Assembly: GCA_963767735.1 (NCBI GenBank)
Contig: CAVYES010000009.1
Coordinates: forward strand, 1-64,000
Origin: Candidatus Bathyarchaeota archaeon
Lineage (GTDB): Archaea > Thermoproteota > Bathyarchaeia > Bathyarchaeales > Bathycorpusculaceae
Reading direction: 5' to 3'
DNA: 64,000 nucleotides
Shown: positions 24,248 through 60,130 of the stretch, piece by piece
How the letters are laid out: every line of letters starts with the position of its first letter
Numbering within the stretch: position 1 is the stretch's first letter
Program-made: the position numbers and the translations under genes
The notes under the pieces: generated by a model
What the model was told of the DNA's origin: nothing
The model's database searches: none
The model's input: the letters and a program-made list of their open reading frames with translations, nothing else

Positions 24248-24271
24248 TGGTGCCGGGGGTGGGACTTGAAC
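24248..24271. repeat. attR: 24-bp duplicate of the tRNA-Leu 3' end
   Basis: tggtgccgggggtgggacttgaac, identical to 60107-60130. Confidence 0.95.
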
Positions 24272-24410
24272 TCCCATTTCTTGGCGATATGCACTAGCGA
24301 AGTAAAAAGTGGCGATGTACAACTCAGCTATCTCTACGCAGCTACTTCCCCTTTTTTCTTTTTAGGGGCTTCCAGTTGTTCAGGTGCAAGTTTGGCAGGA
24401 AGTGAGAAAG

Positions 24411-24602
24411 TTGACAAAAAGATGCCCTATGTGTGGCGGATTCATTTCAGACGAGCGATTCACGGGTATCCCCAAACCAAAAATAAACTGTCCAGGATGC
24501 GGCAGCATAAAAATTTGGAAAGACGGTCTACGGAACAGAAGTCAGGGCAAGATTCAGCGTTATCTTTGTCGAGATTGCGGCCTTCGGTTTTCAGAACAGT
24601 AA
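24411..24602 (+). CDS. Small zinc-ribbon protein, paralogous to the integrase N-terminal zinc ribbon
   Basis: CPGCGSIKIWKDG...IQRYLCRDCGLRFSE versus integrase CPKCGSVKVWRDG...IQRWLCRDCGLRFSD; TTG start after a purine-rich SD-like sequence. Confidence 0.75.
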   Translation: MTKRCPMCGGFISDERFTGIPKPKINCPGCGSIKIWKDGLRNRSQGKIQRYLCRDCGLRFSEQ

Positions 24603-24663
24603 ACGATATTCTTAACAGCCAACTTTGCTTTTGGCTTCGCAGCAGCCGGATGGAGGTTTCTTA

Positions 24664-24810
24664 TTGAATCAGAAAGAAATAGAAGCTGCCGCTGTTATGA
24701 TGCGTATTTTCCTTGCGGGTTTAGCCTTTAATTTTGATGCTAATTTTCATGAGCTTGAGGAAGTTACGAAGCGAGCTTTGCTTGAAATTAAAACGGAGGC
24801 TTCTTCATGA
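24664..24810 (+). CDS. Small hypothetical protein
   Basis: GGAGGT SD before TTG; stop overlaps the next start (ATGA). Confidence 0.55.
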   Translation: MNQKEIEAAAVMMRIFLAGLAFNFDANFHELEEVTKRALLEIKTEASS

Positions 24811-24965
24811 AAGGTTTAAAGGTTAACTCGTGTATCGGCTGCCGCAACTATTGTTTACGGATTGATTTGCTTTGCCGCGTTGGCTTTGACTTTGACTTGC
24901 AGTGTTGGAGAAATCAGTTTGAAGCCAAAAACTTTGCTGCTTTCTGGCTAGGAGTGGCTGTTTAA
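24807..24965 (+). CDS. Small Cys-rich protein (52 aa, below the ORF-track cutoff)
   Basis: GGAGG SD, ATGA overlap; MKGLKVNSCIGCRNYCLRIDLLCRVG... Confidence 0.5.
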   Translation: MKGLKVNSCIGCRNYCLRIDLLCRVGFDFDLQCWRNQFEAKNFAAFWLGVAV

Positions 24966-24966
24966 C

Positions 24967-25263
24967 TTGGCTGAAGATTGCAGTTTGTCTAATTATCCCT
25001 TTGAAGCCGTGAGTAGATGGCAACCTCTTTGGAAGCATAAAGACTCGCAACTTGAGGCAAAAACAAAGGTGGTTGCGGGTGCTTCGGCGCCTGCGGGTAG
25101 CTGCGAATTTATTGGCAATATAGCTTTTGTGGGGTGTGCATCTAAATTACGACTGTGCCAGATTGATGGGTGTAGTTGCACTTTTGTTTGCTACTCTGAT
25201 TCCAAAGTTTGGAGCAAGTGCTGGACTCGATTAGAAAAGTTGAAGAATAAAGGGAAAACTTAG
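24967..25263 (+). CDS. Small Cys-rich hypothetical protein
   Basis: GGAGTG SD, TTG start 1 bp after the previous stop. Confidence 0.5.
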   Translation: MAEDCSLSNYPFEAVSRWQPLWKHKDSQLEAKTKVVAGASAPAGSCEFIGNIAFVGCASKLRLCQIDGCSCTFVCYSDSKVWSKCWTRLEKLKNKGKT

Positions 25264-25278
25264 CGGAGCCTGTGCATT

Positions 25279-26196
25279 TTGACTGGAACATCTGAAGACA
25301 AGTCATCAAAGGCAGGTAACACCTGTGATAACAGTTACTGTCCCAGCTCAGGTTTCAGCGTAGAAGAGCGAGTGTTAAAATTAATCGATGAGAGCGAAAT
25401 TGAGCTTGCACCATACGAGATAGCTAAGAAAGCCCATGCTAAAAGGTCCTCTGTCAGAGTTATTTTGCGGAAATTACTTGACCGAGGCCTGATCTTGCAG
25501 CCTTATCCTGGAGCATACTGCAACAAAATCACCTACGGGATGCGGTTCGTTCCGTTATGCGTGCACAATGTTAGTTTGCGGTTTTTTGCTGGCACGGTTG
25601 CTCATTGGGAGAAGGATGAGTTTGTGGGTGGGGTGAAGATTCATGTTTGTTTTGGGCAGGAGCGGCGCAAGATTAGCGGGTATATTGCCTGCGACATTGG
25701 CGGTATGAGTCATGATGCTTGCCTTCTTGCGCTGAATCGTTGGTTTGACATCGTTGAGGGCAAGTTGGGACGGTCGGTTGTGGATTTGGAGCTCCTTACG
25801 TTTGAGTGCAATAAGGACTACTATGGCGTGCGAATCGACGGGGTCCAATGTGTCACCAAAAAAGACCTTTACGGCATGGTTGAACGGGTCTACCAGAAAG
25901 AAGAAAACTTGGTTCGCAAGGAGTGGAAGGTTTCTCAGCCGATGAGTGTTAATGCTTTTGAAGCAGCCATAAAGAAGGGCATAGGCGAGCATGATCGCGT
26001 GCAGGCATCTTTTGAGTTGAAGGAAGAGGTTAAACGTGTCTCGGAAGCGGTAAAGTTTGCTAACAGCCGGTTGTATGAATTGGAGAAGCTGAATACTGCA
26101 ATGTTTACCGCTCTTACCAAACTGGTGGATTTCACAGCTAACAATCAAGAGGTACCTAAAGGTTCTGAGAAGGGAGGCTCAGGCTATGTCTCTTAG
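25279..26196 (+). CDS. wHTH-fused putative Rep_trans-like replication initiator/relaxase
   Basis: N-terminal wHTH (EIAKK...SSVRVILRKLLDRGLI); C-terminal FECNKD, ERVYQK and VRKE resemble Rep_trans D-x-A-x-D, R-I-Y-x-K and R-x-E motifs. Confidence 0.5.
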   Translation: MTGTSEDKSSKAGNTCDNSYCPSSGFSVEERVLKLIDESEIELAPYEIAKKAHAKRSSVRVILRKLLDRGLILQPYPGAYCNKITYGMRFVPLCVHNVSLRFFAGTVAHWEKDEFVGGVKIHVCFGQERRKISGYIACDIGGMSHDACLLALNRWFDIVEGKLGRSVVDLELLTFECNKDYYGVRIDGVQCVTKKDLYGMVERVYQKEENLVRKEWKVSQPMSVNAFEAAIKKGIGEHDRVQASFELKEEVKRVSEAVKFANSRLYELEKLNTAMFTALTKLVDFTANNQEVPKGSEKGGSGYVS

Positions 26197-26676
26197 GCGG
26201 GACGTGTTAAATCGTGAGCCTAATTATGCGCGTGGTATGCATGTTAATGTCGGTTAAAACCTGTTCAAAGCAATTTTACCACGATGGTTAGGGCATGGGA
26301 AAAGTCCATGCTTTTCAGAAGTCTCTTTTCTTCGTTTGGTTAGTCCTGATTAATCACTGTTAGTTTTGCCATGTGTTGATGAAGCAGAATTCTTGGAGTG
26401 AGCACTTTGACATGGAAGAAAGCGAAAAACCCTGTTCAAAACCAGAAAAAGAAGCTCAGTTACAGCGATAAGACAGGCCGTTTGCAGTGTAACCAGCAGC
26501 TATTCAGACAAACTCTCAGAAGTTGAAGGATTCAAGCCTCATGCTCCACACAAAAGATAAACACAGTGATTAGTTGAGCTTCTAGCAAATTTTAGAAGAA
26601 TACGCCTCTTGCTTGTTAAGAAAAATCATTTTTCGACAAATCTTTATTCTAATTGCGCTATTATTAGTAACTAACG

Positions 26677-28335
26677 ATGGCGCTTTCCATGGAACCGATG
26701 TGGACACGTGAGGTTAAACTATATCATAGACGGTTAGATCCTTTGGGGCTTTCGAGAGTTTCCCAATGGTCAACAGACCAGCTTCTTCCCGGTATAACAT
26801 CAGTTACTGATGTTGCACGGAACTATTCTTTCTATTGCTGGGCTATTGGTAATTTGCTAAAAGAGAATAAGGTTACTCAGAGAAGTCAGTTTGCGTCTCA
26901 CATAACCAAACGAGAAGCGGCCTATGTTATTGCCTCAATCTTTCACGAAGAAGACAAACCTTCAAAAATGAGTCCACATGGCTACGACATAGCAATAGAT
27001 TTTATGAGAAAGGCAAAGGAAAACAAGTACCAAGTCGCCTTCGACGTTTCAGACAGCAACTCAGAAGGATTTTACGGACTTTATTATGGAACACCAATGA
27101 CCAGACTTGGCCTAACAATAAGGTCAAGACTATTTGATGATTTAACTCCACTAGGGCGCAGGCTTGCAAGTTTCTATGAAGAAAACGTCAAAACAACAGA
27201 TTATTTTAAAAATCATACTCAAGATGAGGACTTAAAAAAACAGGTATTAGTTGAATATGGAAATAGCGCATGCATTTGTCACTTGGTTAAGCCTTCAAGC
27301 GAACGGGACCTTCTCCGTGAAGTGATATTTAGCAAGAATTTTAGGTCGCCGCTGCTTGAAAAGTCAAGGAAGGAAACAATAGGTTCAGTTCTTTTCATGG
27401 TAAGGCAATGTAGTAAGTTAAGCATAGATTTTAGTGCTGAAATTTTCAGAGACGCTGTCTACTTTGGGCAGGTAACCGATGGAGAGACAGTTTTTGACTT
27501 GAACCTGAAGGGTTTTGAAGAAATAACTTCCCGCTGGCGTCTCTTTCAGTTGCATGAATACCTGACATATGCATTGGAATCGCTTCTTCATGCCTTGATT
27601 AGTCAATTAAAACGTAAAGAAGAAGGGCTTTCACTTGATGATTTCATAAAATTGATTGGAGATCCTACAGCCGCATTAGCATCAAAACTAATGGTTGATG
27701 AACCAGGCAATTTTGAGGCGTTAGTCGGCTCTGTCCTAAAAAAATTCGGTTTGGAAGAGTTAAGTCAAGAAACAAGCCTCGAATTTGCTAAGCGCTGTAA
27801 TCTACGCTCAACTTTCTCTGAAAAATCAGCCTTCATAGCTCTCAAACAGGCTAACAAAAGCAGTAATCTTCAGGAGATTATCGAAAATTCGATGGCTATT
27901 CTAACGCTAAACTACATTCGTTCTTTTTATTTGCTCAGCAGCGTTGACCCAGTTACGTTATGGTTCAATAACAGAGCGATCGTGGATTGGAGCCCGGTAT
28001 TTTTTGCTCAAGAGATTAAAAGCAAAGCTTCCAAATGGTCTATTGATAGTTTACTCAGATACTGCTTCAGAAGCATTGTAGAGAGGCATGACTTGATTGC
28101 TTACGAAAAGTTGCTAGCTGGCAATGATACTTTTCGTTTTGAGGAGAAAGCTGTACGTTTGAAGTTTAAAATGGATATTTACCCAAATTACCCAACTCAA
28201 AGAAGTTCAAGGATTGACTCAGTGATTTCAATACTTGAACAACTGGGTTTGATCGAAACGGAAACGGGGGTTAAGAGACTTACGGCTGACGGAGAAAGAT
28301 TTTTGGGAGAATGCATGAATGAAGGAAGCAATTGA
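26677..28335 (+). CDS. Uncharacterised 'DPLG...LLPGITSVT..ARNY' protein (DUF6361-like N-terminus), first gene of the Argonaute cluster
   Basis: N-terminal motif, YGLYYG.PM..LGL..LTPLG internal wHTH-like segment, C-terminal wHTH-like LEQLGLI...RLTADG; overlaps the next gene by 17 bp. Confidence 0.75.
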   Translation: MALSMEPMWTREVKLYHRRLDPLGLSRVSQWSTDQLLPGITSVTDVARNYSFYCWAIGNLLKENKVTQRSQFASHITKREAAYVIASIFHEEDKPSKMSPHGYDIAIDFMRKAKENKYQVAFDVSDSNSEGFYGLYYGTPMTRLGLTIRSRLFDDLTPLGRRLASFYEENVKTTDYFKNHTQDEDLKKQVLVEYGNSACICHLVKPSSERDLLREVIFSKNFRSPLLEKSRKETIGSVLFMVRQCSKLSIDFSAEIFRDAVYFGQVTDGETVFDLNLKGFEEITSRWRLFQLHEYLTYALESLLHALISQLKRKEEGLSLDDFIKLIGDPTAALASKLMVDEPGNFEALVGSVLKKFGLEELSQETSLEFAKRCNLRSTFSEKSAFIALKQANKSSNLQEIIENSMAILTLNYIRSFYLLSSVDPVTLWFNNRAIVDWSPVFFAQEIKSKASKWSIDSLLRYCFRSIVERHDLIAYEKLLAGNDTFRFEEKAVRLKFKMDIYPNYPTQRSSRIDSVISILEQLGLIETETGVKRLTADGERFLGECMNEGSN

Positions 28336-30430
28336 CCTTATCGAAGAAATACATAAAATTCAGCCATCGTCAAGGGTTCTATTTACTACTTACAAGTACA
28401 ATCAATCCTTTTTTGAAAAGTACGTTTTCTCACGTTTCCGTGGAAAATCGCTGCCTTTAGTTTTGATGGATTACTATGAGTACCAAAATGTCCTGAGGGA
28501 ATCTGGGAAGTCTACTCTGGCAGGTACTCGTTATTTGATAGACTCTATACGACTAGAGAATGGAACGTTCCATCCAAAGTTAGTTGTTGCTTGTTCAGAT
28601 AAAGAAATCAAGATTATCGTAGGTAGCGCCAACTTAACACATGCAGGTTTCTCCAAAAATGCAGAGATATGCGCTGTTGAAACCATTCCTTTTGACAAAC
28701 GCCGTGAATACCCCATTTTGTTTGATCTATGCAATTTCTTAAGAATTCTCGCAGATACAGTAGAGAGCAAACGATTCAAGCAAGAAATTGAAGGATTGCT
28801 GAACAAAATCGACCTCAACCAGCAATCGAGCGCTAAAAAAGATACTATTCAACTACTACATAGTTTAGAAGAACCTATACTAAACCAAGTCAGAACTAAC
28901 ATTAAAGAAAAAGTGACGAAGGTTATAGTACTGTCGCCTTTTTTCTCTCAAAATCAAACGCTCTATAACACTATTGCTGAGAGCTTTTCCGAGCAGATGG
29001 AATTTATTGTCCAAATAGGGAACAACAATTTCCCAGTTAATGCAATAGCGAAATGGAGCAGAATTAACAAGGTTCATTTTTCTTCAATTGGTTTTAAAGA
29101 CAGTCGCGACCTGCATGGCAAAGTAATTCTTTTCCATACTAACTCTGAGGTGTTTGGACTAATAGGAAGTGCAAACTTTACAGAAAGCGCCTTAATGCAT
29201 TCAAGCGAAAATGGAGGAAACGTAGAGGCATCCTTGCTTTTGAGAGCTCAACCCAAGAACTTTGATTACTTGTTCGACTCTAACATCTTATCATTAAGCA
29301 AGATTGGTCTAGATGACGTAAAGCCAGTTGCTAATCCCTTAACTGCAAAGCCTACAAGCGATTTCCGAATTATAGATGCGAACGTTGTTGGCGATAAACT
29401 TGTCATATCCATTGATTACAAGTCTTCAACTGGGGCATTTAAAGTCAAAATTAATGTTAACAATTTATCCCGAGAAATTTTGTTAGACGTAAACACAGAA
29501 AATATTTCCGTAGAACTATCACCTTCCGATTTGCAAGCCTTATCAGCAAGTTCAATTGTCTCCATGTCAATCAACGACGGACATCGAGAGCTTTCTTCAG
29601 ACCTAAGGTTAATACATAAACCTCTATATTTCCCCGACCAGTTCGCTGCGTTAAATTCGATTGCCGACGAAGACGAAAGAACTTGGCTGTTTAAAATCTT
29701 AACAAGGTATGCTGCACTGCCAAACCTTAGTTATGTTATGCCCATAATTGAGCGGTTAGAGAGTTACGGCTTCTTTGACCTGGATAGGGCGTGTAAGGAA
29801 GAGATTTTATGGTTACTCCAAGCCCAATTAATGAATATCAAACCTTATTCTGCCTCAGAACAATTCACCAGCTTAATTGACCGCTTAAAGAATAGACATA
29901 AGAGCCGAATGGAAAATGCTATGAAATCTAGAAAAATTGACGAGCTTCCAATTGTTATCAGTTCCTTTTTGATGATCAATAAACTCTGTATTTGGCTTGT
30001 AAGAAAAAGCTACCAGGATATTGAGTATCTTCGATGGGTAAGATGGTACATTGAATTCTTGCTCCTAAAACAGTTTATCAATTTAGAAGATGGCGATCAA
30101 GTGAAGATTGTCACTGAAAACAAACTTCTAGCTCACGTTGCCATGCTGTCTTACATAGTGGATTATTATCAGAGAGAATCGCCGAAGTTTCGGGGAATAG
30201 GCAGAAACTATACTAAGGAATATTTTGAAGCTACATTTGTTGATGCTATTCAGTTTTTAAGGAAAGCTGGGGAAGTTCACCTTAAGGACGATTTGCAGTC
30301 TCTTGCGCAAGAATACTCTGATGTTTCACCAGAAATAGACTACTCTCTATCGCGAATAATGGGTAGATTAAATGAAGTCATAAGAACCGTTAACCTTCAT
30401 AAATCAGCCTCTTACCCTCTATTTGCTTGA
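28319..30430 (+). CDS. PLD-superfamily nuclease with two HxK...GSAN motifs and a long C-terminal region
   Basis: FTTY, FHPKLVV...IVGSANLT..G...NAE; LSPFF; LHGKVIL...IGSANFT...NVEA. Confidence 0.88.
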   Translation: MKEAIDLIEEIHKIQPSSRVLFTTYKYNQSFFEKYVFSRFRGKSLPLVLMDYYEYQNVLRESGKSTLAGTRYLIDSIRLENGTFHPKLVVACSDKEIKIIVGSANLTHAGFSKNAEICAVETIPFDKRREYPILFDLCNFLRILADTVESKRFKQEIEGLLNKIDLNQQSSAKKDTIQLLHSLEEPILNQVRTNIKEKVTKVIVLSPFFSQNQTLYNTIAESFSEQMEFIVQIGNNNFPVNAIAKWSRINKVHFSSIGFKDSRDLHGKVILFHTNSEVFGLIGSANFTESALMHSSENGGNVEASLLLRAQPKNFDYLFDSNILSLSKIGLDDVKPVANPLTAKPTSDFRIIDANVVGDKLVISIDYKSSTGAFKVKINVNNLSREILLDVNTENISVELSPSDLQALSASSIVSMSINDGHRELSSDLRLIHKPLYFPDQFAALNSIADEDERTWLFKILTRYAALPNLSYVMPIIERLESYGFFDLDRACKEEILWLLQAQLMNIKPYSASEQFTSLIDRLKNRHKSRMENAMKSRKIDELPIVISSFLMINKLCIWLVRKSYQDIEYLRWVRWYIEFLLLKQFINLEDGDQVKIVTENKLLAHVAMLSYIVDYYQRESPKFRGIGRNYTKEYFEATFVDAIQFLRKAGEVHLKDDLQSLAQEYSDVSPEIDYSLSRIMGRLNEVIRTVNLHKSASYPLFA

Positions 30431-30525: not shown

Positions 30526-32715
30526 TTGGGGATACAGTCAAATATCTTCTTAGGCAAACGAGCCTTCAATGATCCGACTCTTAAAGTAGATATTTATCGC
30601 ATTGAAGGAATCCCAAACGATAGCGACCGTTTTAAAAACATAAGCAGAGTTAAAGATGCACTTTCTCAAAAACTAAGAACGTTAGTTGTCTTATACTCCC
30701 CTGGAGACGTAGATTATGCACTAGCATTTCAACCGTCTTCAACCACAGAAATTAAGGGAACTCTTGGCTCGGTCAAGCTTGAGAAAAAAGATATCGCATT
30801 ATTTGATTATCCGCAGCAGTTACGCGAACTTCATTACGAAGCAACAAGAAATAGCTTGGAAAAGTATGGTTTATGGAGACAAGGCTATAACATTTATTTT
30901 GAGCCTTATCCAGAAAAAACGATGGACGAATTTGAAATCTATCGCGGCATGTGGTTTAGATACGACCTTATTGGCAATAACATTGAGTTAGCTATTAACC
31001 CAATGACTAAAGTGACCAGTAGGAGCACAGTTTGGGAATTAATTTCCAAATTTGGACAAGAACAAGCTAAAAAAAGATTAACTTACCGACATGTCTTAGC
31101 CACTCAGGAAAAAGGAAAAGCAATCTATCAAATCGTTAGGTTGGACTTCAGTAAAACGGTTAATACAAAATGCATTCCAATTGGTGACAAAAACTACAGC
31201 GTCAAAGAATATTTCAAAAGGCCAGGCGGAAGACCAGAGTTAGCGAATTTAGTATCAGACGCAGAATGCGTAGTCTTTGTAAAAAGAGGCCTTGATGGCA
31301 AGGAACTGAGCATGGCTCCAAGCCTCTTAAAGCTTATCCACAAGACGGATGACTTTCCAAAAGAACGAACATTACGTCAAGAGCTGCAAAGTGAGGTTTT
31401 TCTTTCAGCTGAGAGACGTCAAATTTTAACTCAAAAGTTCTTAACTATACTAAATCCCTTATGGCTTGGCAAAATATCCAATGAATTTGAGACAGCTGAC
31501 ATATCAACAACAAAGGAAACAGGCGTACTTTCTGCACCTAAATTAATTTTTGGGGGCAAACAAGTAGTTACTCCAGATTTTGCAAGTTATGGTGCCTTTA
31601 TGAAAGGCGCCTTACGAAAGTTTGGTCCAGCCAAGAAAGCTGCTTTTTCTAGCAATGCATTGTTAATAGTTCACCCGTCAACTGTTTCCAAAGGCATAAT
31701 AAAAAACTTCTATGATGATTGTAAGGAAGTCTCAAAAGAGTTTTTCCGCACATATCTGCCTGACAAGCCTACCTCGTATAGCTATCCTGATTTTGATGTA
31801 AGAAAAGAGTACGAGTCTTTCAAGAGTAATATTGACGCTGTTTTATCAGTTATTCAGTACGAAGGAGATACTGACCGATATCTAAACTTTAAGGAGTGGT
31901 TTGATAAGCCCAATCAAGTGCTTACTTACCGAGTCATAGATGAAAGATATCGCTTACCAAGAGAACAAATGGGAAAATATCAAAATTTACTTCTTAATGT
32001 CTGTGCTGGATTGCTGGGTAAAATGGGTGGGAGACCTTGGGTGCTAGATGCAAAACTAAGCGCTGATTTTTATGTAGGGCTAGATGTTGGTGGTGACAAA
32101 AATGCAAGAGTTGCTTGTTACACTTTCTTCGATGGCTATGGCAATTATATCCGTGAAGAATGGAGACCGCAACGGGCCGAGGGGATTAATCCGCAAGAAC
32201 TCAAGAGAATTGTTGTCAATACAATTGCAGGATACGGTAATCGACTTAACCGCATTGTTTTTCATAGGGATGGACAATTTACAGATGAAGAACTAAGAGG
32301 TATAGATACCATTAATTCTGAACTAGTCTCAAATGGAACTATTTCAAATGATGCGAGATTAACATGTGTTAACATTAAGAAGAATGTACCCTTCCGACTG
32401 TATGATGCTGAAGGCAAGCAACATAGTGGATGCAAAATCGGCTCTTATCTGATTCTAGATGAACATAACGGTATAATTGCAAATTCGGGGGCGCCATTAT
32501 TAAGGCAAGGGATGGCTCGACCGATATTGGTAGAAACTGTTAAACCCTTTGATAACACCGATATAAAGACAGCCTTACAAGATATCTATTACTTATCTTT
32601 CATGCATTGGGGGTCGATAATGACTAAGATGAAGCTTCCCGCGACTTTACGCTATGCTGATGCACTCACGCCATTTGCATTAAGAAACATCCGGATTACA
32701 GGAGTGCCTCTTTAG
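30526..32715 (+). CDS. ago: Long prokaryotic Argonaute (N-PAZ-MID-PIWI), predicted catalytically active
   Basis: PAZ-like SVKEYF; MID Y-K-Q-K (YLNFK, PNQV, GKMGGRPW); PIWI tetrad GLD520V, E552, HRD582G, YAD712; LSFMHW and LPATL. Confidence 0.95.
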   Translation: MGIQSNIFLGKRAFNDPTLKVDIYRIEGIPNDSDRFKNISRVKDALSQKLRTLVVLYSPGDVDYALAFQPSSTTEIKGTLGSVKLEKKDIALFDYPQQLRELHYEATRNSLEKYGLWRQGYNIYFEPYPEKTMDEFEIYRGMWFRYDLIGNNIELAINPMTKVTSRSTVWELISKFGQEQAKKRLTYRHVLATQEKGKAIYQIVRLDFSKTVNTKCIPIGDKNYSVKEYFKRPGGRPELANLVSDAECVVFVKRGLDGKELSMAPSLLKLIHKTDDFPKERTLRQELQSEVFLSAERRQILTQKFLTILNPLWLGKISNEFETADISTTKETGVLSAPKLIFGGKQVVTPDFASYGAFMKGALRKFGPAKKAAFSSNALLIVHPSTVSKGIIKNFYDDCKEVSKEFFRTYLPDKPTSYSYPDFDVRKEYESFKSNIDAVLSVIQYEGDTDRYLNFKEWFDKPNQVLTYRVIDERYRLPREQMGKYQNLLLNVCAGLLGKMGGRPWVLDAKLSADFYVGLDVGGDKNARVACYTFFDGYGNYIREEWRPQRAEGINPQELKRIVVNTIAGYGNRLNRIVFHRDGQFTDEELRGIDTINSELVSNGTISNDARLTCVNIKKNVPFRLYDAEGKQHSGCKIGSYLILDEHNGIIANSGAPLLRQGMARPILVETVKPFDNTDIKTALQDIYYLSFMHWGSIMTKMKLPATLRYADALTPFALRNIRITGVPL

Positions 32716-37483: not shown

Positions 37484-37517
37484 CCAGTTACACCACGGAC
37501 CAGTTTTATCATCTAAA

Positions 37518-51837: not shown

Positions 51838-52634
51838 TTGGTCTTCAGCCTATCAAGCTCCAGTCGGTCTCTAAAAACGTCTGCAATTCTCAAATCGGAG
51901 TCCGCAAGCTTGCATACCTGCTTGTCAGAGTTGAACAACGTCTTGCAACCATAAAATATCAGGACAAGCCCTCTAACATCTTTGTATGTGGTCTTCAATT
52001 TGTTAATAAATTTGAGGTCAGTTTTCACACTTTCAGCCGAAGCTGGATAAGACTTCACCTGCACAACTCCATAGATACGCTTCTTTGCCCCGTTGTAGAG
52101 AATAATGTCAGGTCTACGATTTCCTAACCCATCTTTGAAAGGTTGAGGAATAATCTCTGTAGCCAAAGCCATACTTCTACTTGACAGCTCAAAATAACCT
52201 AAATCATCAAGTGGAGAATCAGGATTAGGGGTAGAATAACAGTCGACGTTGTCATCGGTAAAATACTCCGACTTGAGAAGGTGAAGCAACAGTCTGGTAG
52301 TTAGCAGTTCCGAATAACCCATAAAGTTGGTTGAATTGGATTTGAGTTTCTTTAAGTCCCACCAGAACTTCCAATAAATAGCGGAAACATCACCGCAAGT
52401 GATTTCTTTATGGTGCTTCTTCAGGAAGCGGTCAAGAGTTTTGAAACTCATGGTGTTCCAATCTTTTTGAGCATCAGCAGGCAGGTCTTGAAGTATTGAG
52501 CTAACTTTTAGTCGTGGCTCCCACATATCAAAAGCGAACTTCTCAATACCGTCCCAACTTTTCTTTGCCTGCTTGACTTTAGAGTTGTTTTTTTCATTCA
52601 TTGATTCTTGCCTTCTTGTTACAACAAATCCCAT
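51834..52634 (-). CDS. PD-(D/E)XK restriction endonuclease-like protein
   Basis: G..E helix, RRPDIILY...VVQVKSY (PD...QxK variant). Confidence 0.62.
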   Translation of the reverse strand: MGFVVTRRQESMNEKNNSKVKQAKKSWDGIEKFAFDMWEPRLKVSSILQDLPADAQKDWNTMSFKTLDRFLKKHHKEITCGDVSAIYWKFWWDLKKLKSNSTNFMGYSELLTTRLLLHLLKSEYFTDDNVDCYSTPNPDSPLDDLGYFELSSRSMALATEIIPQPFKDGLGNRRPDIILYNGAKKRIYGVVQVKSYPASAESVKTDLKFINKLKTTYKDVRGLVLIFYGCKTLFNSDKQVCKLADSDLRIADVFRDRLELDRLKTK

Positions 52635-53416
52635 CGGTTCTGATGACTTAGCACAAGTTGAGCTAACTCATGCTCACACGGAAACCTTTGGCTCCACCAA
52701 TTTAAACTGTTACCGTATCCTTCACTGCGTTTATTAGACACAAAATCGGTTGCAAAAAGCGTTTTAATTGGTACTATGCTGACTAGTCCGCCAGAAAAAG
52801 AGTAGTCAAAGACTATGGCGTAATCGTTTTTCCATGCTTCACGCCAATAAATCAGAAGAGAACCTACCTTATTGTCTTTTGTTTGTTCAATATGCACAAC
52901 TATGTTTCCTCTAACCCACGATTTGCCTTTGATGTTCTGGTATCCAAGGGAAAGAAGCTTTGTCTCTGCGGTTCTACTCGACTTTGGTGAAGAATCAATC
53001 AACTTGGGGATAATGCTTTCACTAACTGGTTTAGCAACCGGGGTCTTGACTGACGCCGATGAGCCATTCCGATGTTTACCGTGGCATTCATTGCAGATTA
53101 CGCGGTTTCTGGTTGTCCCCTTAAAATCAACGTATTTTGAGCCTTTGTCTCCCAAACGTGGCTCATGGTGCAAGGAATATTCATTGGCTTTCAGAGAAGT
53201 GAGATCTCGTCCGCATTCTGTGCACCTGTAATTTTGTTTAGCAAGGAGGAAATTCTTGTACTTGAGATAAGGCGTTATTTGGTAAAGCAAGTTTAGGTTG
53301 TCTCCACCCATCATCAGGGGGAGAACTGTGCCGTCTTTTTCAAAAATTAGCTGGTCAGATTCTTCATCATAGTGAATTCTTAGACCGCTAACGGTTTCTC
53401 TGGTTTTCAATAGCAA
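52619..53416 (-). CDS. HNH endonuclease with additional C-terminal domain
   Basis: YRCTECG...LHHEP...NRVICNECHGKH. Confidence 0.75.
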   Translation of the reverse strand: MLLKTRETVSGLRIHYDEESDQLIFEKDGTVLPLMMGGDNLNLLYQITPYLKYKNFLLAKQNYRCTECGRDLTSLKANEYSLHHEPRLGDKGSKYVDFKGTTRNRVICNECHGKHRNGSSASVKTPVAKPVSESIIPKLIDSSPKSSRTAETKLLSLGYQNIKGKSWVRGNIVVHIEQTKDNKVGSLLIYWREAWKNDYAIVFDYSFSGGLVSIVPIKTLFATDFVSNKRSEGYGNSLNWWSQRFPCEHELAQLVLSHQNRWDLL

Positions 53417-53492: not shown

Positions 53493-54035
53493 CTAATTAT
53501 TAGGTGTAGCTTTTGCTTGTTTTCGCTTGTCAATCGCATATTGGTTGGCTTTTTGTTTTTCAATGCGTCTTTTAGCAAACCAATAAGCCCATGCTGGTGG
53601 TTGAACACAGCTTACGTTTAGCTCATTTCTTCGTGTCTCTAAGTCTTTCAACCTCTTGACAAGTTCATCATCTGTTTCCCGTAGATAATCGATGGTATAG
53701 AATACCCTGATGTTGTTTCTCAGCTCCAGATAGCTGTTTCCAGCGGTCAAATGGCATGATGCCCGTTCTTTCGGATTCAAGAAAGTTGAAATAGCCGCTA
53801 AAATGCCTGCCAACAGAGCCGAAACTCCCACAAAAATACCGTACCTATTCAAATTGGCAAGTGCTGTACCACCAGAGAGGACTGCAAGAACTGCGGTTGG
53901 CAACCCTAACCAGAAATGGGTTGTCGACCAAACGGTTGCGGCAGTCAAGTGGCTTTCCTTTGAATACTCTGCATCTTCTTCTATTCGTTTTGCTTCATCG
54001 AAAATGTTTTGTTTAAGGCTCATAGTTTGTTGCAT
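53493..54035 (-). CDS. SLATT-family 2TM CBASS effector
   Basis: H..AA..W...HFWLGLP, two TMs, TFLNP..RA..H..AG..Y..L; 6 bp downstream of the CD-NTase. Confidence 0.85.
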   Translation of the reverse strand: MQQTMSLKQNIFDEAKRIEEDAEYSKESHLTAATVWSTTHFWLGLPTAVLAVLSGGTALANLNRYGIFVGVSALLAGILAAISTFLNPKERASCHLTAGNSYLELRNNIRVFYTIDYLRETDDELVKRLKDLETRRNELNVSCVQPPAWAYWFAKRRIEKQKANQYAIDKRKQAKATPNN

Positions 54036-54041
54036 AACTCC

Positions 54042-54920
54042 TTAAGAGTAGTAGCTTGGGAATTTACCGTTGTATAGCATATTCCACCAATAGAAGGCAT
54101 CTTTGATATTGCCTGCCTCTTCCTCTGCATAAGCTTTGTCAGCACGTGACACCGCTGAAGTTAGCTTTGATAAGGCATCTTCTTTTTGGTTTGGAGTAGA
54201 ACAGGGCTGAACCAAACCCGAAACACCCATCGGGTCTTGAATGGATGCTAAACCTGTTCTCAAAAGCTGGTTTAGAAAAATCTTCATATCGATTGAATAC
54301 GCAATGCTTTCTTGTTCGGATGAATACTTTGCAACCCTAAGCTCTAAGTAAAATGAAGTAAGCGGAACATTCTGGTAATAACGCCACGCTTTGATAAACC
54401 TGATAAGCGGTTTAACTTTCTTTCCAAGCTTGTCGTCTAATTGTTTAATCCAACCCTTGTGTTTCTCAGGTGAAGACTTAGTCCAGCCATCATTCCCATC
54501 GGGTATTTCGTAAACTCGGTAACCGCCATAACTGTCCGTCGATTTTAGAAAGTTAGCAGGGACAACCTCAGTCACTTCTTCTCCACCACCGAAGAAAATT
54601 GCCACGGCTGGTGTTCTTACGCTGACATCAGTGTAGGGAAATCGGTTAGTTAATGCTTGTCTTATCAATTGAAGCGAGTAAGAGGAATGTTGGGATAAGT
54701 TTTGAGTTGGGATTTCAGCAAAATAGTCGACATCGCTGTATCCATAAATACTTGTCCCAAAACCAAAGGAACCTGTTCTAAAAAGCGTGATCATTCCATG
54801 ATTTTGTCGCAGGCAAGCCTCTATTGAAGCTCTATGTTGAGAAGCTATTGTTGATTCATTATCGCTTGGTGTTAGTCGGCTGTGGAACTCTCTGAAACCT
54901 TCTTCGATTGTCTTAACCAT
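54042..54920 (-). CDS. cGAS/DncV-like nucleotidyltransferase (CD-NTase, SMODS)
   Basis: TGSFGFGTSIYGYSDVD, EVVPA, YEIPD...W..S.P..H, LIRFIKAW, SFYLE, DP.G, W..L....FP. Confidence 0.92.
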   Translation of the reverse strand: MVKTIEEGFREFHSRLTPSDNESTIASQHRASIEACLRQNHGMITLFRTGSFGFGTSIYGYSDVDYFAEIPTQNLSQHSSYSLQLIRQALTNRFPYTDVSVRTPAVAIFFGGGEEVTEVVPANFLKSTDSYGGYRVYEIPDGNDGWTKSSPEKHKGWIKQLDDKLGKKVKPLIRFIKAWRYYQNVPLTSFYLELRVAKYSSEQESIAYSIDMKIFLNQLLRTGLASIQDPMGVSGLVQPCSTPNQKEDALSKLTSAVSRADKAYAEEEAGNIKDAFYWWNMLYNGKFPSYYS

Positions 54921-55359
54921 TCTTCCCCTCTCTTCTGGAACTATGACCTATTTGCTATTTATTTTTATGGCAAGCTTGTTATAGCCTAAAACTATTTCTT
55001 CAAGAGGATAGCATCGCGCGCTTTTCATGAAGCCTTTCATTTTCCTTCAGAGCATCTTTGATTTGAACAAGCATTTGTTCTAATGCTTCTATTTCTTGAC
55101 ATAGTGATTTTTTTTGTTAGAGCTCTTCAACTGGTTATTTGCTAGTTGGGCCTCATTCTAAGATGACCTCGAGAAAAGACTATCAGAGTATCTTAAGCTT
55201 GAAGTTTAGAGATTCTGCTTATCTTTGATCAACACAATCAAAATTTTAAAAAAGCAATAGAAGAAGAAAATTATAGACTATATAGATAGATATTCGTTGC
55301 AACTGAGACTTGTTAAACCGCCAAAGTAGGAAACTATGCAAGGGAGAAATTTCTAGAGA

Positions 55360-55857: not shown

Positions 55858-56739
55858 TTAAGAAAAGCGCACTTTCTTCATCAAACTTTTTGATCCTAGC
55901 CCTCCTTCTCTTCTTTTCTTTTTCAAAATAAGAAGAAGCAAATTCAAAAAAACCTTGTTCTCAGCAGTAAATATCTCAATTCGGATGTCTTTAATTTCCT
56001 TCGTGACTGTCAATAACCCATTAAAAAAAGCTCTCAAGAATAGACTTTGCATTTTCCTAGTTAGAGACTCACTATATTCAGGCAAGAAGTTTTCCTTCAA
56101 AAATGCTAATCTTTCTTTTAAACTAAAGTTAGCCCATTCATTGACAAAACGAACGGCGAACCAGGATTCAAACCAAGGTCCTGATGAATGATAATCCAAA
56201 AAACTTGGTGAATTGTCTTTGAGCTTTTCACTTATCAAATTCGCTTTTTCAAGTGGTCTAAACTTATCGTTGCAAACGGCAAGTGCATTGCGTAGAGCAT
56301 CGTAGAGTCCTGGAATTGCTTCATCGCGAAAATCGAATATTCCCTCTAAGAATTCCCACTCAGAGAAGAACTTAATCTGAGGATAAAAATCCCGCTGGGT
56401 CAAAATAACTGCTCTAACATTTTTCATGCTGAACGAATCTGTTTTAGGAGACTCACCTTGAGTTATATTTTTTTCAGGAGAAGCTGAAAAGAAAAAATTC
56501 AAAACAGTCAAGAACCCTGCGAATGTCAATCTGAAGTAACGCTTTGGCAGAGGTCCTTGGCCTCTCTTAGTTCTTACCTCCTCAATCAAAGCTGCTAATA
56601 ATAATCGTTCGATAGCTTCATGTACGGGAGCGTAAGTTAAACCAACTTTTTTGGTGATCTCATACTGCGTAACCTCTTTGCAGTTTGCAACCTCACACAG
56701 TATTTTCTCATATGTTTCTTCGTTTATGTTTTTCACCAA
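55858..56739 (-). CDS. Winged-helix transcriptional regulator (putative element repressor)
   Basis: TQYEITKKVGLTYAPVHEAIERL...KRYFRLTFAG; divergent from the AbrB/ZnF/integrase genes. Confidence 0.72.
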   Translation of the reverse strand: MVKNINEETYEKILCEVANCKEVTQYEITKKVGLTYAPVHEAIERLLLAALIEEVRTKRGQGPLPKRYFRLTFAGFLTVLNFFFSASPEKNITQGESPKTDSFSMKNVRAVILTQRDFYPQIKFFSEWEFLEGIFDFRDEAIPGLYDALRNALAVCNDKFRPLEKANLISEKLKDNSPSFLDYHSSGPWFESWFAVRFVNEWANFSLKERLAFLKENFLPEYSESLTRKMQSLFLRAFFNGLLTVTKEIKDIRIEIFTAENKVFLNLLLLILKKKRREGGLGSKSLMKKVRFS

Positions 56740-56779: not shown

Positions 56780-56836
56780 AGAAATAAACCATATTTAAAT
56801 GTTATTTGAATAGAGAGTTGACAGGAGAGTATTCCA

Positions 56837-57031: not shown

Positions 57032-57038
57032 TGACGGT

Positions 57039-57281
57039 ATGGCGGAACCTACAGAAACTCGGGGACAACAAAGCTTAGGGTTTAAAAGCGAAAAGACAAG
57101 AAGCAATTCAATCCAAAAGTATATGCTCTCTGCAGTTTACGTTCGGTATAAGGATCATGTTCTCTTCAAACACACCCAACAACCTGTAGCTGAAGCAGTT
57201 GAACGTGAAAGCATCGGTTGGCTCGCAAAGCAAAATGGCTGGACTCACAAATCCTGGCAAAGTGAAGGAGGCCTGGAATGA
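57039..57281 (+). CDS. Small hypothetical protein
   Basis: GAGGT SD; ATGA overlap with the next gene. Confidence 0.5.
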   Translation: MAEPTETRGQQSLGFKSEKTRSNSIQKYMLSAVYVRYKDHVLFKHTQQPVAEAVERESIGWLAKQNGWTHKSWQSEGGLE

Positions 57282-57517
57282 ATAAACAGAAGCAATGCTG
57301 CTATTGCGGTCAGGTCTTTACTCCTAAAAACAGCAAAGCCCGTTTCTGCAGCACCCGCCACAGAGTAGCCTACTTCAAGCGCAAGAAAAGACGCCTGCAA
57401 ATAGAGGAGATCAGACGTCGTTTAGGACTACCTGCTTTGCTATCCGAAAGCGAGGAGGCGGTCAAGTTTAATCAAATTCTTGATAGAATTTCCAATTCAC
57501 AGGGGGATCCCAGATAA
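57278..57517 (+). CDS. Small CxxC...C-x3-H zinc-finger protein
   Basis: CCYCGQVFTPKNSKARFCSTRHRVAYFKRKKRR; GGAGG SD. Confidence 0.7.
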   Translation: MNKQKQCCYCGQVFTPKNSKARFCSTRHRVAYFKRKKRRLQIEEIRRRLGLPALLSESEEAVKFNQILDRISNSQGDPR

Positions 57518-57826
57518 ATGAAAGAAAGCGGAAGTTGCCTTTTGGAATCGTTAGGTAGAAATCCGCTAAAACCCGCTGAATTTCAGGTTTTGGATAACCC
57601 TAATTTTGATTGGCATCCTGTTTACCGTTTCTGGATAATACCGTTTGGAAATCGTTACCCATGTTCCGACAAGGCTGTCGGTTTTGAGGGAACGACGCTT
57701 GAGGTTCTTGTAAATCGTAACCAGCCTGTGGGGCAGTGTTGTGAGGAGAAGCGGAGCCAGTTGAAGCAAACGGTTGTTATGGCCGACTTCGAGGATAAGT
57801 GTCAACCGCCAGGAGAGGGCTTCTTA

Positions 57827-58144
57827 ATGGCGAAGGAAAAGATTTGCTTGTATTGCGGTAAAACTTTCACGCCTAAAAACCCTAAGGGCTATTTCTGCAA
57901 GACAAGCCATCGAGTAGCATTCTACAATCGCAAGAAACGACGCCAGAGAAAACAAGAAACTAAATTGTGGTTAGAGCAGCAGCGCGAAAAAATGTCTGAC
58001 TCCATCGAGGTCATGCTTGAACGACAAATAGCAGAGCGCAGAGAACAGGAATGGCAAGAGCGAATTCGGAAAATCATGCAGCAAGCGGAAGAAAATGAAC
58101 GCCGACTGCTTGAAAAATGCCGCGACTCGGAAGGAGTGGTATAG
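57827..58144 (+). CDS. Paralogous zinc-finger protein with coiled-coil tail
   Basis: CLYCGKTFTPKNPKGYFCKTSHRVAFYNRKKRR; AGGAG SD before ATG 57827 (the ORF track extends it to 57518). Confidence 0.7.
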   Translation: MAKEKICLYCGKTFTPKNPKGYFCKTSHRVAFYNRKKRRQRKQETKLWLEQQREKMSDSIEVMLERQIAERREQEWQERIRKIMQQAEENERRLLEKCRDSEGVV

Positions 58145-58557
58145 GAATGCGTTTTGAAATCGTAAACTCAAATTTTGCTACTTTTTGCGCCGAAACGGCA
58201 CCTTTGCAGGTTAGAGAGAAGAATCGTAAACCCGAAAATCCGCTGAATAATAGGAAAAAAGTGGAAAATCAGCTGAACCCCGCTGAAGAACCATCTAAAC
58301 AAGGGGGAAGAACCGTTACAGCTTATTACGATGCTCTGAGGAAATTTGCGAGATTTTGCGAGAAAAGGGGTACCCTGCAAATTGCAATCGTAACAGAAAA
58401 AAGCCCAGAAACGCCTCAATCAGTCTGCGCAGCGGGTAAATGGGGATATACTCAGTTGCTTGTTACGATTCTCTTGTTACGATTCTTAAAGAACCATCAC
58501 ATTTTGCATTTTTTGCTGGGGTTGCCGTGTGTTGACTTGCAGGAGGTACTTTAGTTA

Positions 58558-59874
58558 ATGGTTGAGGTTGAGGGGGGAAAAGCGCTTGCCTCTTCGGGCA
58601 TGCTTGGCGGTCTCAGCGTTGGAGCTGGCCACCTCCACTCCGGCGTTAAGGAGCCCTCTGATGAGCCTCAACTAGACGTTACTACGACCATAAAGCCTTC
58701 TTGTCCCAAATGCGGCAGCGTGAAAGTCTGGCGAGACGGGACACGTTTGCCAATGTTTGGCGACCCAATCCAACGATGGCTCTGCCGAGACTGCGGACTG
58801 CGATTCTCAGACCCAAATGACGTTTTGAAGGCTAAAGAAGCGGTTGAAACAATTGAAATGATTGAAACGAAGTCATTAAAAACCCAAAGCAACATAGTAG
58901 TTAACTGCCAAATATGCGTCGAGGAGACGAAAAACTTGGTAGCAGAACAACAGAAAACTGAAGTTCTGCGTAGAGAAACAACTGACGTCAAAGGAAAACT
59001 AGTAGAATTTGCTTGGTGGATGAAAAAAGAAGGCTACAGAGACGCAACAATTCTAGGCAGATCCAAACTACTACGCATTCTTGCCAGACGAGAAGCAGAC
59101 CTCTATGAACCGGAATCCGTAAAAAAAGTAATCGCAAATCAGCCATGGTGCGAAGGAAGAAAAGCTAACGCGGTCGACGCCTACTCAAGCTTCCTAAAGA
59201 TGGTTGGTGGAACATGGGCTCCTCCGAAATACACAGGCATCGCTAAACTTCCATTTGTCCCAAAAGAAACCGAGATAGACCAGTTAATCGCAGCATGCAG
59301 CCACAGAATAGGAACCTTTCTTCAAATGCTTAAGGAAACAGGGATAAGATGCGGCGAGGCATGGCGGATTCAATGGGATGACTTTGACTTTGAAACCAAT
59401 ACAGTGCGAATTACTCCCGAGAAGAACAGTAACCCACGCATCTTCCATGTAAGCTACAAACTCATAGGCATGCTCCAGCGTTTGCCTAGAAACTACGGTA
59501 AATACGTTTTCTCAAAACCAACAATGCCGCTTGACAATTTCAGAGACAACTACGCTGAACAAAGAGACCGCATCGCAGAAAAAGTCCAAAACCCGCGATT
59601 AAGCAAAATCATGTTTAAGACATTGCGAACCTGGAAAGGAACCATGGAGTACCATCGGACAAAAGACGTTCTTTACGTCATGCAGGTGCTAGGCCACAAA
59701 AACATCAAGAATACATTGGTTTACATACAGCTCGAAGAGGCACTTTTCAACGACCAGACAGACTTCGTTTCAAAAGTAGCTAAGACGGAAAAAGAAGCCT
59801 GCGCATTAATCGACGCAGGATTTGATTTCGTCTGCGATTTCGATGGACATAAACTATTTAGAAAGAGGAAGTAA
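58558..59874 (+). CDS. int: Tyrosine recombinase/integrase with N-terminal zinc ribbon
   Basis: TGIRCGEA (R), TPEK (K), FKTLR (K replaces H of HxxR), LGHK (H), NTLVY (Y); adjacent to the target tRNA. Confidence 0.93.
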   Translation: MVEVEGGKALASSGMLGGLSVGAGHLHSGVKEPSDEPQLDVTTTIKPSCPKCGSVKVWRDGTRLPMFGDPIQRWLCRDCGLRFSDPNDVLKAKEAVETIEMIETKSLKTQSNIVVNCQICVEETKNLVAEQQKTEVLRRETTDVKGKLVEFAWWMKKEGYRDATILGRSKLLRILARREADLYEPESVKKVIANQPWCEGRKANAVDAYSSFLKMVGGTWAPPKYTGIAKLPFVPKETEIDQLIAACSHRIGTFLQMLKETGIRCGEAWRIQWDDFDFETNTVRITPEKNSNPRIFHVSYKLIGMLQRLPRNYGKYVFSKPTMPLDNFRDNYAEQRDRIAEKVQNPRLSKIMFKTLRTWKGTMEYHRTKDVLYVMQVLGHKNIKNTLVYIQLEEALFNDQTDFVSKVAKTEKEACALIDAGFDFVCDFDGHKLFRKRK

Positions 59875-60106
59875 ACGTGATAAAAAACCAAGAGCTGAAA
59901 CAGAAAGCAATAGACCAATACCTAAAAACAGGCGATATTCTTCAACTGCAGAGAGGACTAGGACACAGAAGAATCCAATCAACCTTTGCGTTTATTCAAC
60001 GCAATAACCTGCTGATAAAACGTTTCGACGGAGCATTTTCATGCTGAGCAAACCCGAATTACTAGAGAACATCGCCAGGACAAACCCCCGGTATTTTCAC
60101 TTATAT

Positions 60107-60130
60107 TGGTGCCGGGGGTGGGACTTGAAC
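60107..60130. repeat. attL within the tRNA-Leu 3' end
   Basis: Identical to 24248-24271. Confidence 0.95.

Follow-up and report, generated by a model that had tools for sequence, protein, structure and literature searches.

A probable 36-kb integrative defence island at an intron-bearing tRNA-Leu(UAA) gene of a Bathyarchaeia archaeon

Defence islands carried by integrative elements at transfer RNA (tRNA) hot spots are known in both bacteria and archaea, and their cargo varies between relatives. Long prokaryotic Argonaute (pAgo) systems with partners are also known, as long-A systems and as long-B systems with nuclease, SIR2, or membrane partners. Here, we describe a region at positions 24248–60130 of a 64,000-nt stretch of DNA (hereafter the window) from a member of the Bathyarchaeia, which are abundant, mostly uncultured archaea of sediments and soils. 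The window is C9:1–64000 (contig CAVYES010000009.1) of genome G000 (GCA_963767735.1; 3.04 Mb, 10 contigs, 94.9% complete). The closest described systems are the cryptic integrated elements of Thaumarchaeota (Krupovic et al. 2019, PMC6563490). Of 68 such elements, 39 lie in tRNA genes, and in 10 of these 39 the gene has an intron. The same source describes integration in the 3′-distal part of the tRNA gene, an integrase, no virus or conjugation genes, restriction-modification (R-M) cargo, and tandem or nested cases. Archaeal integrases of the Sulfolobus spindle-shaped virus (SSV) type have the attP site within their own open reading frame (ORF) and are split upon integration (PMC7253208). For Bathyarchaeia, the literature reports a closed Bathy-6 genome with large variable regions, ~3-Mb genomes, proteins rich in pyrroloquinoline quinone (PQQ) domains, and a provirus in GR-1 (PMC11697101); a survey of viruses and defence inventories, with 39 types in 367 metagenome-assembled genomes (MAGs) and cyclic-oligonucleotide-based antiphage signalling systems (CBASS) in 16 (PMC10848311); and pAgos in MAGs (PMC13477220).

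We conclude, with a probability of roughly 0.85, that 24248–60130 is one integrative element of the cryptic integrated element or genomic island kind. An earlier note, made from the letters of the window, had proposed a tRNA-integrated defence island of 36 kb with exact ends, and this central proposal is supported by the repeats, the integrase, and the comparison of the locus among relatives. The features that define the ends are the following:

24248–24271, plus strand: distal attachment site (att), an exact 24-bp duplicate of the tRNA 3′ end
58558–59874, plus strand: tyrosine integrase of 438 aa with a Phage_integrase domain (E 2e-13, profile positions 5–169 of 172) and an N-terminal IS1-type Zn ribbon (Pfam, NCBIfam)
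60107–60229, minus strand: tRNA-Leu(UAA) gene, interrupted in the D-arm region by a non-canonical intron of ~35 nt; the integrase-side att is formed by the last 24 nt of the gene (60107–60130)

The 24-nt sequence TGGTGCCGGGGGTGGGACTTGAAC has two exact occurrences in the window, 24248–24271 and 60107–60130, which bound 35.9 kb, and two or more matches were seen in 0 of 100 dinucleotide-preserving shuffles. The perfect 24-bp repeats proposed earlier are thus borne out by exact string matching and by the shuffles. Genome-wide (3.04 Mb), there are these two exact copies and one with two mismatches on contig C7, and inside the island there is no extra copy at up to seven mismatches. The C7 copy (C7:169968–169991) is another Leu-like 3′ end, ~5 kb from an integrase homologue (C7:175083–176291).

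The right att is the last 24 nt of the tRNA-Leu gene, encoded CCA included. ARAGORN with default settings called no tRNA anywhere in the window, and Rfam at gathering scores returned nothing there. In a permissive Rfam scan, the acceptor stem and T arm of a tRNA at 60107–60229 pair (E 1.8e-4), alignment with two intron-less tRNA-Leu genes of G000 places a 35-nt insert in the D-arm region and UAA in the anticodon loop, and in-silico deletion of 33–38 nt leads ARAGORN to call tRNA-Leu(taa). Default tRNA finders miss this gene because of the 35-nt non-canonical intron; even when run with intron search on G000, ARAGORN reports 42 tRNA genes, many of them intron-bearing, and still misses tRNA-Leu(UAA). 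The alignment, the permissive scan, and the call after intron removal together establish the target that the earlier note had named, tRNA-Leu(TAA). Since tRNA finders miss the target gene, island finders that depend on tRNA genes would miss the island.

The integrase is intact, as had been stated. Its 438-aa frame is open, it has a Phage_integrase domain, and when aligned to archaeal XerA it keeps both Arg, the His, and the Tyr of the active site, with Lys in place of the first His of box II. The ORF is unbroken and does not include the att, which lies 232 bp past the stop codon. A 98%-identical copy is found in genome G062, and 72 of the 81 genomes of the genus have a match at E ≤ 1e-10, many in multiple copies. 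In a large protein collection, the family comprises 1628 proteins at E ≤ 1e-20, whose named members are labelled Bathyarchaeota, Bathyarchaeia, or Nitrososphaerota, except for one Candidatus Acidoferrales bacterium. The three records that contain the nearest pAgo relatives likewise bear the names Bathyarchaeota or Bathyarchaeia, in keeping with a bathyarchaeial host; a search with the archaeal amoA profile (PF12942) had no match, here or in the control genomes.

Evidence for an insertion comes from relatives, of which 40 were searched with each flank, and eight loci were compared to the window by blastn. Window positions 26553–59151 have no blastn match in any of the eight loci. In G004, the 468-aa left-flank gene (window 20871–22277) ends 17 bp from an 86-nt copy of the 3′ part of the tRNA, with the tRNA and cbf5 2.15 kb beyond that copy. 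In G003, all on one contig, window 14599–22155 is syntenic and is followed by 3.1 kb, an 88-bp remnant of the integrase 3′ end, the tRNA, and cbf5, and in G013 an att copy lies 2.3 kb from the tRNA. Rather than stable synteny of the entire region, relatives G003, G004, and G013 therefore hold 2.15–3.1 kb between the flanks. Other relatives hold pieces of related elements. G018 has at least three att copies on two contig ends, along with pieces of the element’s left end (window 24246–24288 and 24657–24761) ~380 bp from the 468-aa flank gene, and G001 has a ~5.5-kb remnant with the 3′ half of an integrase gene (79% nucleotide identity), a match to window 26240–26452, and an att copy. The most complete is a 25.2-kb sister element in G063, at that genome’s own tRNA-Leu beside cbf5, with the exact att core and integrase DNA 81% identical; it holds both left-end pieces on one contig with the right end, around a 22-kb middle. 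The cargo of this sister element consists of PQQ/Ig-domain surface proteins, AsnC-type regulators, an MFS transporter, a GNAT protein, and a DDE transposase, and only 1 of its 28 ORFs matches a PADLOC model (E ≤ 1e-8). A comparison of this tRNA locus across related genomes for variable cargo had been suggested as a check, and variable content is what we see, in the form of remnants and of a sister element with other cargo. Because genomes of the same genus hold 2–3 kb or smaller related elements between the flanks, tRNA-Leu(UAA) is an integration hot spot that collects elements and remnants. In G062 (C5:1–12000), cbf5 and the methyltransferase gene are followed by the left flank of the window in inverted order (from 22273 to 17325). 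The two species, G062 and G000, differ by an inversion that has one of its ends at the hot spot.

The following parts lie on either side of the cargo, with further leader copies elsewhere in G000:

24384–24602, plus strand: 72-aa ORF that copies the Zn ribbon of the integrase (63% identity over 40 aa)
25279–26196, plus strand: 305-aa protein with an N-terminal winged helix and weak MarR (Pfam) and PHROG regulator matches, part of the element core
26244–26553, plus strand: ~200-nt leader with a hairpin, then the first ~40 codons of a gene for a 149-aa winged helix-turn-helix (wHTH) protein
55858–56739, minus strand: 293-aa protein with an N-terminal winged helix (ORF and profile search)
57278–58554, plus strand: integrase-proximal core, with 79-aa and 208-aa proteins that have a common Cys-rich basic motif, plus a 145-aa protein
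C5:98200–98820, C3:2256–2565, and C9:66244–66343: further copies of the leader in G000

The conserved core is ~9 ORFs at the two ends, only ~5 kb in all. At the right end, window 57309–60276 (island to 60130, then tRNA) is 97% identical to G062:C5, compared with 78–83% for the adjoining backbone. The 145-aa core protein has no match in Pfam (E ≤ 1), NCBIfam, or PHROGs. At the left end, DNA related to the 305-aa gene is present in other genomes of the genus, and the leader belongs to a repeat of ~310 bp; genomes throughout the genus have multiple copies of it, in every case with DNA of this element family. In an alignment of 13 copies, the ~200-nt leader is strongly conserved, with a hairpin GCATGG..CCATGC, and is followed by the start of a gene. 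That gene is complete, encoding a 149-aa wHTH protein, at the paralogous copy on C5; the copy in the window ends after ~40 codons, precisely at the start of the cargo. The leader could be an operator, an origin, or an RNA; it had no Rfam match in the gathering-score scan of the whole window, the one Rfam search that covered it. The 72-aa Zn-ribbon ORF had raised the possibility of a split integrase of the SSV type, which was ruled out by the orientation of that ORF and by the whole integrase: it reads away from the distal att, unlike a split N-terminal piece of an integrase. Between the integrase stop and the att, on the plus strand at 59904–60014, there is also a stretch with weak likeness to an integrase C-terminus (35% over 37 aa, E 0.01). 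This stretch and the 72-aa ORF are probably traces of earlier integrase genes.

Between these ends lies the cargo, which spans 28.2 kb (26677–54920) and was annotated with Pfam, PADLOC, and NCBIfam:

26677–30430, plus strand: 552-aa protein and 703-aa nuclease with two phospholipase D (PLD) domains (PADLOC ZacB / PDC-M27B-like)
30526–32715, plus strand: long pAgo of 729 aa (Pfam Piwi, PADLOC)
32680–33870, minus strand: metallopeptidase-like gene with an HExGH motif, 396 aa, convergent with the pAgo gene with a 36-nt 3′ overlap; two frameshifts divide it into three ORFs
33874–34356, minus strand: 160-aa protein, always upstream of the HExGH gene
34515–37485, minus strand: UvrD-type helicase fused to a Cas4-like PD-(D/E)XK nuclease, with five frameshifts (Pfam, PADLOC)
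37518–43152, minus strand: Hhe / PDC-S37 helicase–Vsr-type nuclease, divided by a frameshift near 39300 into ORFs of 1282 and 580 aa
43331–49997, minus strand: type I R-M system with a YgjP-like peptidase (ygjP 43331–43879, hsdR 43939–46744, hsdS 46927–48207, hsdM 48433–49997)
50134–50885, plus strand: Nmad3-domain gene with one or two frameshifts (Pfam)
51172–53416, minus strand: three ORFs without annotation (221, 266, and 265 aa), of which the 265-aa one has a weak HNH-endonuclease match
53493–54920, minus strand: CBASS, with a cGAS/DncV-like nucleotidyltransferase (CD-NTase) of 292 aa and an SLATT/2TM effector of 180 aa (PADLOC, NCBIfam)

With at least eight defence modules side by side, the region is a defence island. 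The earlier note had described this cargo as contiguous; the named systems are indeed there, but the UvrD-nuclease, hsdR, hsdM, Hhe, Nmad3, and HExGH genes are each cut into several ORFs in this assembly. For example, hsdR, hsdM, and hsdS are all present (Pfam, PADLOC), with hsdS intact, four shifts in hsdR, and three in hsdM. Hhe retains DUF4011, AAA_11/AAA_12, MTES_1575, and DUF3320 in order over its two ORFs, and positions 10–601 and 1016–1545 of the PDC-S37 profile are covered. In the CBASS, the CD-NTase matches a PADLOC cyclase model over 1–287 of 287 positions (E 2.5e-111), and its NCBIfam CBASS_cyclase_b score of 109 bits is under the 200-bit equivalog cut-off, whereas the effector matches the PADLOC 2TM model at E 3.2e-50 and SLATT_4 at 129.7 bits against a 55-bit cut-off. 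The adjacent genes for CD-NTase and effector make this a predicted CBASS by definition. Gabija was considered for the UvrD ORF, which matches GajB models, and was set aside since GajA is absent (0 of 41 ORFs, PADLOC) and the helicase is instead fused to the Cas4-like nuclease. The 552-aa protein and the ORFs at 51172–52634 have no match in Pfam (E ≤ 1), NCBIfam, or PHROGs. In a protein-cluster atlas, the 552-aa protein and a fragment of the HExGH protein correspond to bacterial clusters without names, and the nearest named family is a weak match (Peptidase_U49, 0.80).

Searches for capsid, portal, terminase, conjugation (VirB4/TraG-type), and replication families returned none among 46 ORFs with Pfam, 25 with NCBIfam, and 20 with PHROGs, in line with the earlier statement that capsid and conjugation genes are lacking, and no transposase was found among the island ORFs tested with Pfam. 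It had further been proposed that every unannotated gene inside is a defence candidate. This guilt by association is weaker than claimed, because ~9 ORFs at the ends are element core and because the sister element in G063 carries non-defence cargo.

Some of the cargo is rare in the genus: this genome included, the pAgo is found in 2 of 81 genomes and the CBASS cyclase in 1 of 81. Other modules recur at high identity, such as the R-M genes, 91–93% identical in G001:C7, where hsdM is an intact 542-aa ORF, and the UvrD-nuclease, with a 91%-identical copy in G063:C6. The cbf5 region of the same two genomes is 73% (G001) and 75% (G063) identical, versus 91–93% for the cargo modules. Overall, modules and ends are 91–97% identical at the nucleotide level between species versus 73–83% for the backbone, which points to horizontal exchange within the genus. 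Short contigs from two metagenomes of different studies, one of them labelled peat, are identical to window 51220–51606, 52166–52394, 55016–55253, and 59582–59812, and other parts of the island match contigs of these metagenomes at ~92–95%. The element, or a near twin of it, occurs elsewhere at low abundance.

We propose that a tyrosine recombinase recombined an attP with the 3′ end of tRNA-Leu(UAA), an event to which the observed repeats would testify. The element would have supplied a replacement 3′ end, leaving the tRNA whole and a 24-bp duplicate at the far end, and as the integrase is unsplit, this would differ from the SSV mode. Such an element would consist of conserved ends, namely the integrase module on one side and a distal module (Zn-ribbon ORF, wHTH protein, leader) on the other, around a replaceable middle of ~30 kb, here with at least eight defence modules. 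Given that no capsid, conjugation, or replication genes were recognised, cell-to-cell transfer would have to rely on something other than capsid or conjugation genes of its own.

The pAgo gene and its two neighbours deserve separate discussion. Residues 111–713 of the pAgo align with VbAgo, and the pAgo retains the two Asp whose mutation defines the deposited double mutant of VbAgo; from this alignment it looks like a catalytic-type long pAgo. We found no use in the literature of the PADLOC model name ‘PprPIWI’. Homologues of the HExGH protein are 396–397 aa long, and H182, E183, G185, and H186 are invariant in 33 aligned sequences. An AlphaFold2 model (predicted local distance difference test score 90.5) combines a three-helix bundle at the N-terminus with a helical domain that contains a small sheet. 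In a Foldseek search against the PDB, this model had no match at E ≤ 0.001; the weak rows are mostly Zn metallopeptidases (Ste24p, E 0.03), and the output of a wider fold search was taken up by hits to the N-terminal helical bundle. BepA (M48) scores Z 8.0 over 164 residues against the model, which is within the noise range for helical models. The 396-aa protein is thus best called metallopeptidase-like, as far as motif and model suggest, and would not belong to a named family. The 160-aa protein has no match in Pfam (E ≤ 1), NCBIfam, or PHROGs.

The three genes keep company beyond this genome. In genomic loci found through the pAgo, both partner genes are present in 3 of 3, and among 13 metagenomic loci found through the HExGH protein (100% to 43% identity), 12 have an adjacent pAgo, three of these 12 being cut by the end of the contig or of the fetched locus. 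The thirteenth has only the last 28 codons of a pAgo gene, despite a 5-kb flank. The 160-aa gene is likewise present in 12 of the 13, and the remaining locus begins inside the HExGH gene. These loci (L090–L092, L105–L117) include near-duplicates and amount to ~9–10 independent sequences. The PLD nuclease and the 552-aa protein were also considered as pAgo partners and rejected, as they are conserved in 0 of 16 related loci. We found no paper on a pAgo paired with HExGH and 160-aa partners. It is possible, and we suggest it tentatively, that the trio is an undescribed Argonaute system with the peptidase as its effector or switch, and that elements with the Zn-ribbon integrase are a main vehicle for such modules between Bathyarchaeia species, via tRNA-Leu(UAA). 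The pAgo, the peptidase, and the small protein make a testable candidate for a new Argonaute accessory mechanism.

How to read the broken genes of the cargo bears on whether the island is still in use. Frameshifts were found by reading all three frames and by comparison to homologues, and there are 16–17 in all: four in hsdR, three in hsdM, five in the UvrD-nuclease, one in Hhe, one or two in Nmad3, and two in the HExGH gene. For a genome-wide rate, we used 400 kb of G003, in which 87 ORFs of at least 300 aa have a likely orthologue in G000; 9 of them are split over frames in G000, with 12 shifts, or 0.093 per kb. A backbone gene of the window, a DUF3131 gene at 5117–6396, is itself split in three, and an intact paralogue lies at 8049–9737. 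Against the copies in relatives, dN/dS is 0.06 for hsdM, 0.04 for hsdR, and 0.08 for the UvrD-nuclease, and in ~2,400 codons of these three genes there is no premature in-frame stop. Compared with the intact 542-aa gene of G001, each of the three hsdM shifts is one additional base, and contigs of two metagenomes likewise lack the base added at 48645. Similarly, an extra A near 33515 in the HExGH gene is absent from P0001, which is 98% identical and comes from another data set. We had at first favoured a ‘graveyard of defence genes’, and downgraded it after the dN/dS values and the genome-wide rate of split genes. Most of the cargo frameshifts are probably assembly errors; that they reflect real and very recent inactivation is the less likely reading, with a substantial share of the weight. 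If the shifts are artefacts, the defence systems are probably functional in the cell.

Several observations weigh against a single element that is whole and able to move. The 12 shifts in 7.4 kb of hsdR, hsdM, and UvrD-nuclease are ~17 times the background (Poisson p ~1e-11), and this excess means that random assembly error is insufficient to explain them; the hsdR copy of G001 and the UvrD copy of G063 are broken too. Poor polishing of DNA that is present in several near-identical copies in the community is our guess for the excess. The 149-aa core wHTH gene is truncated, and no excisionase was recognised among the element’s ORFs. No excised circle or empty site of the same population was found, the two metagenomes (0.09 and 0.08 of sampled words) with their low-depth contigs being uninformative here, and the loose ends of read contigs at 60107 stem from contigs that have only the tRNA in common. 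The element may no longer be mobile; on the side of mobility are the perfect att repeats, the intact integrase, and a 97%-identical end in another species.

Two alternatives are less likely, though worth keeping in view. One is that the island is fixed and decaying, after a single integration, loss of mobility, and inactivation of its defence systems by real frameshifts. The 16–17 shifts at a density well over the genome background would fit, as would the truncated core gene and the broken hsdR and UvrD copies of relatives, with one hsdR break that may be shared. However, a dN/dS of 0.04–0.08 and no nonsense codon in ~2,400 are hard to reconcile with the neutral gain of three to five indels, the assembly splits 9 of 87 conserved backbone ORFs as well, individual shifts are missing in 93–98%-identical sequences from other data sets, and the att repeats and integrase show no decay. 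The other is a mosaic built in place, in which a small old att-bounded element received its 30-kb middle through later, separate insertions or recombination, so that the 36 kb never moved as a whole. In its favour, the R-M system (G001:C7) and the UvrD-nuclease (G063:C6) occur singly at other loci, the pAgo trio is without the other cargo in 16 of 16 related loci, the cargo starts at the truncation point of the core gene, and G018 has tandem remnants at this tRNA. Yet the island has no internal att copy, none of the tested ORFs encodes a transposase, and the 22-kb middle between the same ends in G063 implies that large middles move along with such ends. The mosaic is compatible with one integrative element if it is taken to describe how the cargo came together.

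Two further possibilities carry little weight. A provirus or integrated plasmid, with structural or transfer genes too divergent to recognise, would be in keeping with ~15 ORFs that have no family match and with the frequent unrecognisability of archaeal virus proteins; we judge it highly improbable, as no capsid, portal, terminase, VirB4/TraG-type, or replication family was found with Pfam, PHROGs, or NCBIfam, recognisable defence genes fill most of the length, and the conserved core is only ~5 kb. Less probable still is a chimera of two contigs misjoined at a repeated tRNA end, even in a metagenome-type assembly with many indel errors and given that tRNA ends are repetitive. The same right end is joined to tRNA-Leu and cbf5 in G062, the same left end lies ~380 bp from the 468-aa flank gene in G018, both ends surround one element on one contig in G063, and the island’s GC content is close to that of its flanks. 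One integrative element at tRNA-Leu(UAA) remains the best explanation of 24248–60130.

Beyond the element, the window is backbone interrupted by a short variable segment:

22278–24247, minus strand: variable segment outside the att-bounded element, with an MG2-like ORF, a chimeric pseudo-tRNA, and a TIR gene
23082–23153, minus strand: pseudo-tRNA, at 27.2 bits against the Rfam tRNA gathering score of 29, with mismatched acceptor pairs
23210–24178, minus strand: TIR gene (CAP12/Pycsar TIR, E 5.7e-14, Pfam; PADLOC PDC-S35, E 2.5e-40)

Backbone genes had been placed at both ends of the island. This is right for the right side, with the tRNA, cbf5, and a methyltransferase gene, but on the left the adjoining gene is the TIR gene of the variable 2-kb segment, which is missing at the locus in G003, G004, and G018. 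The 5′ two-thirds of the pseudo-tRNA resemble tRNA-Gly(CCC), and its T-arm region equals tRNA-Leu over 16 nt, 14 of them in the att core, and not the real tRNA-Gly(CCC) on C8. A homologue of the TIR gene stands beside tRNA-Gly-like sequence elsewhere in at least six other genomes of the genus, and in G019 a TIR gene 92% identical in nucleotides lies near an att-like sequence. We interpret the segment as what is left of some earlier event at the hot spot. Further left, 19646–20620 and 2042–3454 form a glycosylation region with glycosyltransferase genes of the GT2, GT4, and GT87/PIG-U-like kinds and DUF3131 genes. On the minus strand at 12820–15982 are Ku, a LigD ligase/phosphoesterase, and a LigD primase-polymerase, a bacterial-type end-joining set that is syntenic in G003 from 14599. 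Such sets are rare in archaea.

With its exact ends, its hot-spot tRNA, an integrase family of more than 1,600 relatives, and two sister elements that carry other cargo, this locus offers a workable template for finding islands in MAGs. On assemblies of this type, interruptions in defence genes call for accurate reads before they are interpreted as decay. Our literature searches returned no account of non-viral integrative elements in Bathyarchaeia, nor of this family of integrase elements or the hot spot at tRNA-Leu(UAA), with possible overlap in Supplementary Text S6 of PMC11697101. The cargo of the sister element in G063 includes PQQ-domain proteins, as does the Bathy-6 genome of that paper. 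As in the thaumarchaeal elements (PMC6563490), this island occupies the 3′ part of an intron-bearing tRNA gene, with a short att, an integrase, and R-M cargo. Unlike them, it has an att of 24 bp compared with their median of 17 bp, belongs to the class Bathyarchaeia, has an integrase with an IS1-like Zn ribbon, and carries almost wholly defence cargo, including a pAgo and CBASS, and Argonaute is unmentioned in the text of that study. It shares with SSV-type systems an archaeal tyrosine recombinase that targets a tRNA gene, and differs in that the 438-aa ORF is unsplit with the att outside it. Like known defence islands at tRNA hot spots, it holds several unrelated systems between an integrase and att repeats, but here with no satellite or phage signature or conjugation genes, in an archaeal host, and at a tRNA with a non-canonical intron. 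As in long pAgo systems, a full-length PIWI protein is found on a mobile defence island within a fixed neighbourhood; in contrast to those systems, the fixed partners here are the HExGH 396-aa and the 160-aa proteins, encoded convergently with overlapping 3′ ends. The kind of element, a cryptic integrated element or defence island, is thus a known one, and its most original content is the pAgo trio.

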